From a virus (lineage: Duplodnaviria; Caudoviricetes): DNA of 64,000 nucleotides. A program made the position numbers and the translations under genes. The number at the start of each line of letters is the position of its first letter. The stretch's first letter is position 1. Below, piece by piece: positions 1,288 through 1,634 of this stretch. The notes under the pieces are model-generated. The model saw only the letters and a list, made by a program, of their open reading frames with translations. It was not told the origin of the DNA and did no database searches. The stretch lies in IMG/VR virus record IMGVR_UViG_3300042922_001473. The stretch is one strand, 5' to 3'.

Positions 1288-1320
1288 TTAAAACCAACTA
1301 AAACCATCAGGAAAAAACAT
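1288..1320 (-). CDS. Micro-ORF, peptide MFFPDGFSWF
   Basis: AAGAGGTG-ttagtaca-ATG TTT TTT CCT GAT GGT TTT AGT TGG TTT TAA. Confidence 0.6.
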   Translation of the reverse strand: MFFPDGFSWF

Positions 1321-1376
1321 TGTACTAACACCTCTTTTCTTAAAATTTGTTGAAACATTATAAAATTGTTGTTATA

Positions 1377-1409
1377 TTATAACCAACTAAAGCTATCAGG
1401 AAAAAACAT
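1377..1409 (-). CDS. Micro-ORF, peptide MFFPDSFSWL
   Basis: Same RBS and spacing; ATG TTT TTT CCT GAT AGC TTT AGT TGG TTA TAA. Confidence 0.6.
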   Translation of the reverse strand: MFFPDSFSWL

Positions 1410-1465
1410 TGTACTAACACCTCTTTTCTTAAAATTTATTAAAACATTATAAAATTGTTGTTATA

Positions 1466-1498
1466 TTATATCCAACTAATGCCATTAGGAAAAAACAT
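1466..1498 (-). CDS. Micro-ORF, peptide MFFPNGISWI
   Basis: Same RBS and spacing; ATG TTT TTT CCT AAT GGC ATT AGT TGG ATA TAA. Confidence 0.6.
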   Translation of the reverse strand: MFFPNGISWI

Positions 1499-1634
1499 CG
1501 TACTAACACCTCTTTTCTTATAAACGTTTACTTAATATTGTAGTATTTTATCTACTCATTTATTCTGTAAAATTTTACAAATTAAACTTTAATTTATTGG
1601 AAAGTTTTGATAGTATATATATTGGGGGTGTAGT

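Follow-up and report, generated by a model that had tools for sequence, protein, structure and literature searches.

Among described systems, the closest comparison for the locus analyzed here is the class of leaderless communication peptides (LCPs), signals of 8-10 amino acids (aa) that are made without a leader from ultrasmall open reading frames (ORFs), are aromatic or aliphatic in composition and are in some cases plasmid-borne (PMC10518010). Deviant LCPs with polar, charged or Pro residues have also been listed (PMC10518010). The propeptides of RRNPP systems are 21-50 aa long (with detection from 10 aa), carry a Sec signal or match SHP, and lie beside a tetratricopeptide repeat (TPR) receptor of 250-500 aa (PMC10075063). 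Autoinducer genes commonly duplicate and diverge, which is a route to new signal specificity in the Rap-Phr systems (PMC5199041), and a comparable tandem layout is known from garvicin KS and aureocin A70, where three or four paralogous leaderless small ORFs encoding 30-34 aa stand in a row (10.64898/2026.09.04.749385). Searches for peptide signals begin at the receptor and look beside it (PMC10518010, PMC10075063), and orphan signal genes therefore escape them. Here we describe a tandem array of three 10-codon micro-ORFs in a 64,000-nt stretch of DNA (the window) from the IMG/VR record IMGVR_UViG_3300042922_001473, classified under Caudoviricetes, and we compare this array with the systems above.

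The array lies on the minus strand at 1288-1523 and is an 89-bp tandem repeat holding three 10-codon ORFs that are 89 bp apart. Tandem Repeats Finder (TRF) gives a period of 89, 2.6 copies, 93% matches and 0 indels. Micro-ORF 1 (1466-1498) encodes MFFPNGISWI, micro-ORF 2 (1377-1409) encodes MFFPDSFSWL and micro-ORF 3 (1288-1320) encodes MFFPDGFSWF, each as 10 codons followed by TAA, with the repeat terminating at the final base of the stop of micro-ORF 3. All three share GAGGTG, an 8-nt spacer, ATG and TAA, and this pattern of ribosome binding site (RBS) and start had 0 matches in 100 shuffles. The TRF result, the ORF coordinates and the shuffles thus bear out what an earlier sequence-only reading of this DNA had described, namely an 89-bp unit present about 2.6 times with three RBS-ATG-TAA ORFs of 10 codons. 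In all three peptides a constant aromatic frame, opening with F-F-P and closing with S-W-hydrophobic, encloses a variable middle, and they have no leader, a net charge of 0 or -1, moderate hydrophobicity and 3-5 aromatic residues.

The best-scoring repeat segment runs from 1523 to 1288, which is from about 10 nt 5' of the first Shine-Dalgarno (SD) sequence to the final base of the last stop. Specifically, the RBS block of micro-ORF 1 (1499-1523, with the SD at 1514-1507, an 8-nt spacer and an anti-SD pairing energy of -9.7 kcal/mol) forms the left boundary of the repeat. Spacer 1 (1410-1465, 56 nt) consists of a linker of about 32 nt followed by the RBS of micro-ORF 2, with a perfect -10 hexamer at 1451-1446 and a weak -35 hexamer at 1474-1469 within micro-ORF 1. 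Spacer 2 (1321-1376, also 56 nt) differs from spacer 1 at two positions and has the same -10 hexamer, followed by the RBS of micro-ORF 3. The array therefore contains RBS plus ORF three times and the linker twice, which is the outcome expected of unequal crossover between two gene copies. Judged by these signals the array is a set of three RBS-ATG-stop units with a predicted terminator and promoter-like linkers. The same DNA, 100% identical, is present in a JGI contig, in NCBI assembly GCA_029256485.1 and in Logan contigs of two runs from which the DNA may itself derive, so the array is not an assembly artefact; since those copies are identical they carry no independent evolutionary signal.

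We consider it likely that the three micro-ORFs are translated genes and that their translation is under selection. The SD pairing of the array (-9.7 kcal/mol) lies in the span shown by 32 long genes of the element that were chosen for having an SD (median -10.2), and an SD this strong before a short ORF is found about 0.014 times per 89-bp stretch on both strands, a figure that includes the three array copies themselves. In a neutral simulation with six random substitutions, start and stop were kept and only changes with BLOSUM62>=0 occurred in 0.6-1.3% of runs; the amino-acid changes among the copies are all conservative, as the sequence-only reading had said. Tandem repeats that repeat an RBS together with a micro-ORF were absent from about 2 Mb of related megaplasmid DNA, indicating that the layout is not a common accident. 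In addition, when the linker was compared with 399 Clostridia genomes, 6 of its 12 best short DNA matches lay directly 5' of a real gene start in the same orientation. Such chance matches frequently coincide with a real gene's -10, leader and RBS, and the linker thus reads like a normal 5' region. The micro-gene reading is therefore supported by RBS strength, by repeat boundaries that fall at the RBS and the stop, and by the conservative changes, and is no more than probable, as no homolog was found.

Several results pull in the other direction. The selection case rests on six sites in three near-identical copies. While the changes are conservative, scoring them as synonymous or non-synonymous shows, as the sequence-only reading had not noted, that five of the six variable ORF sites are non-synonymous, with a dN/dS of about 0.96, and a ratio near 1 fits diversification and neutrality equally. 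Changes are in excess in the ORF relative to non-coding sites, but not significantly so (Fisher p 0.19). The overlapping +1 frame, which has no RBS, passes the conservative-change test at 4-7% as compared to 1-2% for the true frame by the same criterion, and the test is thus only moderately discriminating. Promoter consensus matches in the region (21 sites versus 14.4 expected from shuffles) are little above chance. Finally, homologs of the array were absent from codon-pattern scans of viral, genome and metagenome contig collections, the genome-contig scan having used a strict pattern that diverged homologs there could escape.

The searches for related units were broad. All inspected matches from the pattern scans were out of frame or interrupted by stops, lacked a convincing RBS, or turned out to be where an unrelated gene begins, and blastn against plasmids and phages gave short AT-rich matches only, so the homologs that the sequence-only reading had hoped to compare did not materialize and only chance matches or unrelated gene starts came up. 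The array was also not found in genome samples of 401 Bacillota, 251 members of the order Tissierellales and 399 Clostridia. Two Bacillota matches were rejected as unrelated Cys-rich peptides beside spmA/spmB-like genes. These peptides of 40-47 aa have aromatic N-termini and a strong RBS, are divergent from the spmA/spmB-like genes (1405-1527 minus and 1513-1656 plus of their stretches) and are likely spore proteins. No micro-ORF array of any kind was present in about 2 Mb of related DNA, made up of four plasmids and a portion of a fifth element, and one 9-codon candidate on the related megaplasmids was discarded because it overlapped a real gene start.

The strongest rival, which we regard as somewhat unlikely, is that the array is a neutral or cis-acting repeat: either what is left of a dead gene's promoter, RBS and start, or a promoter module, would have been duplicated recently, and the 10-codon ORF would be a by-product, whether translated or not, with no peptide under selection. 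The dN/dS near 1 and the lack of a homolog would both fit such a repeat, and the copies are 85-93% alike, leaving little time for selection to show. Promoter-like hexamers, which the sequence-only reading had not mentioned, lie on either strand of each linker, and a further short duplication, a perfect one of 115 bp in two copies, is found in the element. The terminator would be needed by the convergent gene anyway. That terminator, an intrinsic hairpin at 1219-1253 predicted on both strands (z -5.75 minus, -4.83 plus), is real, as the sequence-only reading had proposed in placing it at the close of the array, but it is bidirectional and terminates the convergent 95-aa gene as well, and it is therefore not independent evidence for an array transcript. 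What speaks against a neutral repeat is that the promoter-bearing linker occurs twice whereas RBS plus ORF occurs three times, that homology stops at the stop codon, and that there is no second-position change and no radical amino-acid change. Moreover, a longer parent ORF with the array motif is absent from the window and from the related plasmids.

The account that we favor, and hold tentatively, is that the micro-ORFs encode orphan variants of a leaderless signal peptide that act in trans. A single micro-gene would have given two copies that began to diverge, unequal crossover between them would have produced the array, and a minus-strand transcript, possibly started from internal promoters as well, would give three 10-aa amphipathic aromatic peptides. 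The weakest step is that these peptides would stay unprocessed, would leave the cell as LCP-type peptides do and would act on a peptide receptor whose gene lies at another site of the 535-kb element or in the host chromosome. With three variants, more receptor alleles would be addressed, as with the duplicated and diverged phr genes of Bacillus. Signal variants are favored because of the LCP-like size and gene anatomy, the Rap-Phr precedent for duplication, and an agr-like cluster on a related megaplasmid. Specifically, positions 135453-138277 of the Alkaliphilus plasmid NZ_CP058558.1 hold a cluster reading as agrB-agrD facing agrA-agrC (209, 55, 248 and 440 aa, with the kinase identified by PF14501 and the others by sequence appearance), indicating that such elements can carry peptide signaling. 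A further and rather doubtful version is that the array is a 'signal-spoofing' cassette, a receptor-less and diversifying panel of leaderless 10-aa peptides that would jam or trigger the peptide signaling of several host or competitor alleles in trans. If true, such a cassette would be invisible to gene callers and to receptor-anchored searches.

The partner search covered 2.3 kb left of the window through its 64 kb, with ORFs of at least about 70 aa and the top 25 families listed. The evidence comes from a single locus in what looks like one strain, and the signaling account is further weakened by the lack of a partner in this span: no TPR/RRNPP, RopB, LytTR, AgrB/AgrC, ABC transporter or RiPP (peptide synthesized ribosomally, then modified post-translationally) enzyme was found among the neighbors or the listed families. 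It is also weakened by the grand average of hydropathy (GRAVY) of the peptides, which is 0.6-0.9 versus 2.9 for SIP, and by 40 clostridial AgrC-type kinase loci, none of which had a similar peptide. These 40 loci yielded AgrD-like precursors and one 9-codon aromatic ORF. The latter micro-ORF (4278-4307 of its stretch) has a strong RBS (-10.1) and lies downstream of an AgrC-type kinase.

Less probable than signal variants or a neutral repeat are intracellular decoy or inhibitor peptides that would block a hydrophobic pocket in some protein of the host or plasmid, such as a protease adaptor, regulator or defence protein, with the variants covering target alleles. The translation evidence serves this explanation as well as it serves the signal reading, no export signal or nearby transporter is seen, and the moderate hydrophobicity, together with the Asp, Pro and Ser residues, fits a ligand that is soluble. 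However, peptides of 10 aa are usually short-lived in the cytoplasm, no target was identified, and the 189-aa neighbor is not tied to arrays in eight other loci.

A leaderless multi-peptide antimicrobial, in which tandem paralogs jointly act on membranes as in garvicin KS or aureocin A70, is improbable. The array shares the tandem arrangement, with three or four similar small ORFs following one another in the known cases, but the known peptides are 30-34 aa long and come with immunity, regulator and transporter genes (10.64898/2026.09.04.749385), while the array peptides are 10 aa, neutral or acidic, and have none of those genes adjoining.

We give equally little weight to the possibility that the real product is read from the overlapping +1 frame, as a 25-aa hydrophobic peptide (1358-1281, minus) of the type I toxin kind, with two copies decayed and with plus-strand promoters giving an antisense RNA. 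In that frame three of seven changes are synonymous and the others conservative, and both linker differences fall on in-frame stops, although a C-to-T change at CAA accounts for this stop coincidence. Antisense promoter matches exist on the plus strand, with a sigma-A-like match (10/12, extended TG) at 1350-1378 and a weaker copy at 1439-1467, both being consensus matches only. Against these stand the missing RBS (pairing of +2.8 ahead of the ATG and of -0.4 ahead of the GTG starts), a frame that is open from ATG in the last unit only and differs in length between copies, and the absence of a Pfam or plasmid match, of structured RNA and of a plus-strand antitoxin terminator. Regarding type I toxin-antitoxin features of the array itself, its antisense promoter matches come with no plus-strand terminator, and 10 aa are too short for a membrane span.

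The least probable explanation is that the peptides are minimal RiPP precursors, modified (for example by aromatic cross-links) by an enzyme encoded elsewhere; very short RiPP precursors such as those of biarylitides exist and the aromatic-rich cores have invariant F, F and W, but the sole radical SAM gene of the window (37934-38974) is 36 kb from the array and matches PF04055 and PF13353 only, with no SPASM or RRE match, and no P450, YcaO, protease or transporter adjoins the array, so this suggestion of the sequence-only reading gains no nearby support. A CRISPR array or structured non-coding RNA was rejected, as the units have no Rfam match and no stable RNA structure (unit folding z -0.8 to +0.75) and their variable parts are paralogous rather than unique.

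Upstream of the array, 1537-1579 on the minus strand is a candidate promoter region on weak evidence, having a 5/6 match to the -10 hexamer (1542-1537) and a perfect 14-bp palindrome (1566-1579); the window contains 15 perfect palindromes of at least 14 bp. By eye, a LytTR-like direct repeat was also made out upstream but was discarded as too weak. The array is flanked by a convergent 95-aa gene (923-1210, plus) and by a divergent gene for a 189-aa two-domain protein (1635-2204, plus), both without a Pfam family, in keeping with the earlier remark that no obvious partner gene adjoins it. The 95-aa protein has homologs on Firmicutes megaplasmids that lack an adjoining array, and it had no usable Atlas match. 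The 189-aa protein belongs to an uncharacterised family of 823 representatives, and its model (pLDDT 91) shows a beta-meander plus helices in two small domains without TPR repeats. Fold and sequence searches with this protein gave no clear match and no clear PDB match, which does not imply a novel fold, and none of eight homologous loci has a micro-ORF array upstream. Since homologs of both neighbors occur without arrays, neither is a linked partner. The 189-aa family has a conserved C-terminal helical module (R-W-x-A-R-G-L motif) that is also found fused within longer proteins. The gene at 2324-2785, which adjoins no recognised toxin, encodes a Phd/YefM antitoxin domain extended by 90 aa at its C-terminus, and a PHD-like gene also follows the 189-aa homolog at one other locus.

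With a GC content of 26%, the window is part of a 534,699-bp contig; among its genes are those for RadA, two UvrD helicases, two dUTPases and methylases, besides many uncharacterised ones. Its nearest protein relatives (40-63% identity) are on 400-740-kb plasmids or contigs of Firmicutes, specifically Aneurinibacillus, Alkaliphilus, Jeotgalibacillus, Brevibacillus and Bacillus sp. M6-12. From this gene content and these relatives the element reads as megaplasmid-like, a mobile element of great size and high AT content from a Firmicutes bacterium. Its 1121-aa protein with repeated GHKL ATPase domains (6384-9749) has homologs that are 63% and 48% identical on the Aneurinibacillus and Alkaliphilus megaplasmids. 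A perfect 115-bp direct duplication (two copies, 3162-3391) is intergenic and contains no micro-ORF with an RBS; its start overlaps a terminator-like inverted repeat with 22-bp arms (3149-3193) between convergent genes. A perfect 38-bp palindrome between convergent genes (195-232) is probably a bidirectional terminator. The 14-bp palindrome TTGAC-N4-GTCAA (at most one mismatch) occurs at 4965, 10117, 18173, 20297, 31746 and 44312, with none near the array, and copies of it precede each of two paralogous membrane-protein genes (5033-5518 and 10182-10787) that have about 75% DNA identity over their 5' part.

We found no description of such an orphan micro-peptide array in our literature search, and the array, as read from its DNA, appears clean, odd and cheap to test, and new to the literature searched. 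If the peptides are made and active, mobile elements could carry receptor-less signals or decoys that are diversified by tandem expansion. The three natural 10-mer variants would be cheap to synthesize and offer a built-in specificity series.

Regarding known systems, AgrD autoinducers are made from 40-55-aa precursors with a ring-forming Cys or Ser and an acidic tail, beside agrB, agrC and agrA. They were rejected as a match because the array peptides are 10 aa and no AgrB, AgrC or LytTR match was found among the neighbors or listed families. Propeptides of the RRNPP type (Phr, AimP, SHP, ComS) were likewise rejected, as 10 aa leave no room for a signal peptide and no such receptor is a neighbor, which confirms the earlier view that the array does not fit arbitrium or Phr precursors. 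Multipeptide bacteriocins differ in carrying immunity, regulator and ABC-transporter genes, whereas the 10-aa array peptides are not cationic and have no such genes adjoining. The sequence-only reading had recognised no family, and indeed no homolog was found, but the LCP class does exist as the closest comparison (PMC10518010), as distinct from membership. Relative to the LCP system SIP-RopB of Streptococcus pyogenes and relatives, the array is similar in its 10-codon ORFs, strong SD, lack of a leader and richness in aromatic residues. It differs in having three tandem variants instead of one gene, in being much less hydrophobic, in showing no sequence similarity, and in lacking an adjacent RopB-clan receptor (helix-turn-helix plus C-terminal TPR), the neighbors of 95 aa and 189 aa being too short; furthermore, the listed LCP host families are all Bacilli (PMC10518010). 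Thus, the array may work like an LCP but is no member of the class, as an adjacent RopB-type receptor is absent. In regards to Phr, the precursors carry a Sec signal peptide and their genes follow a rap gene, and the array has neither; the likeness to the phr and nprX genes of Bacillus is instead one of local duplication, after which a short peptide acquires minor amino-acid changes (PMC5199041).
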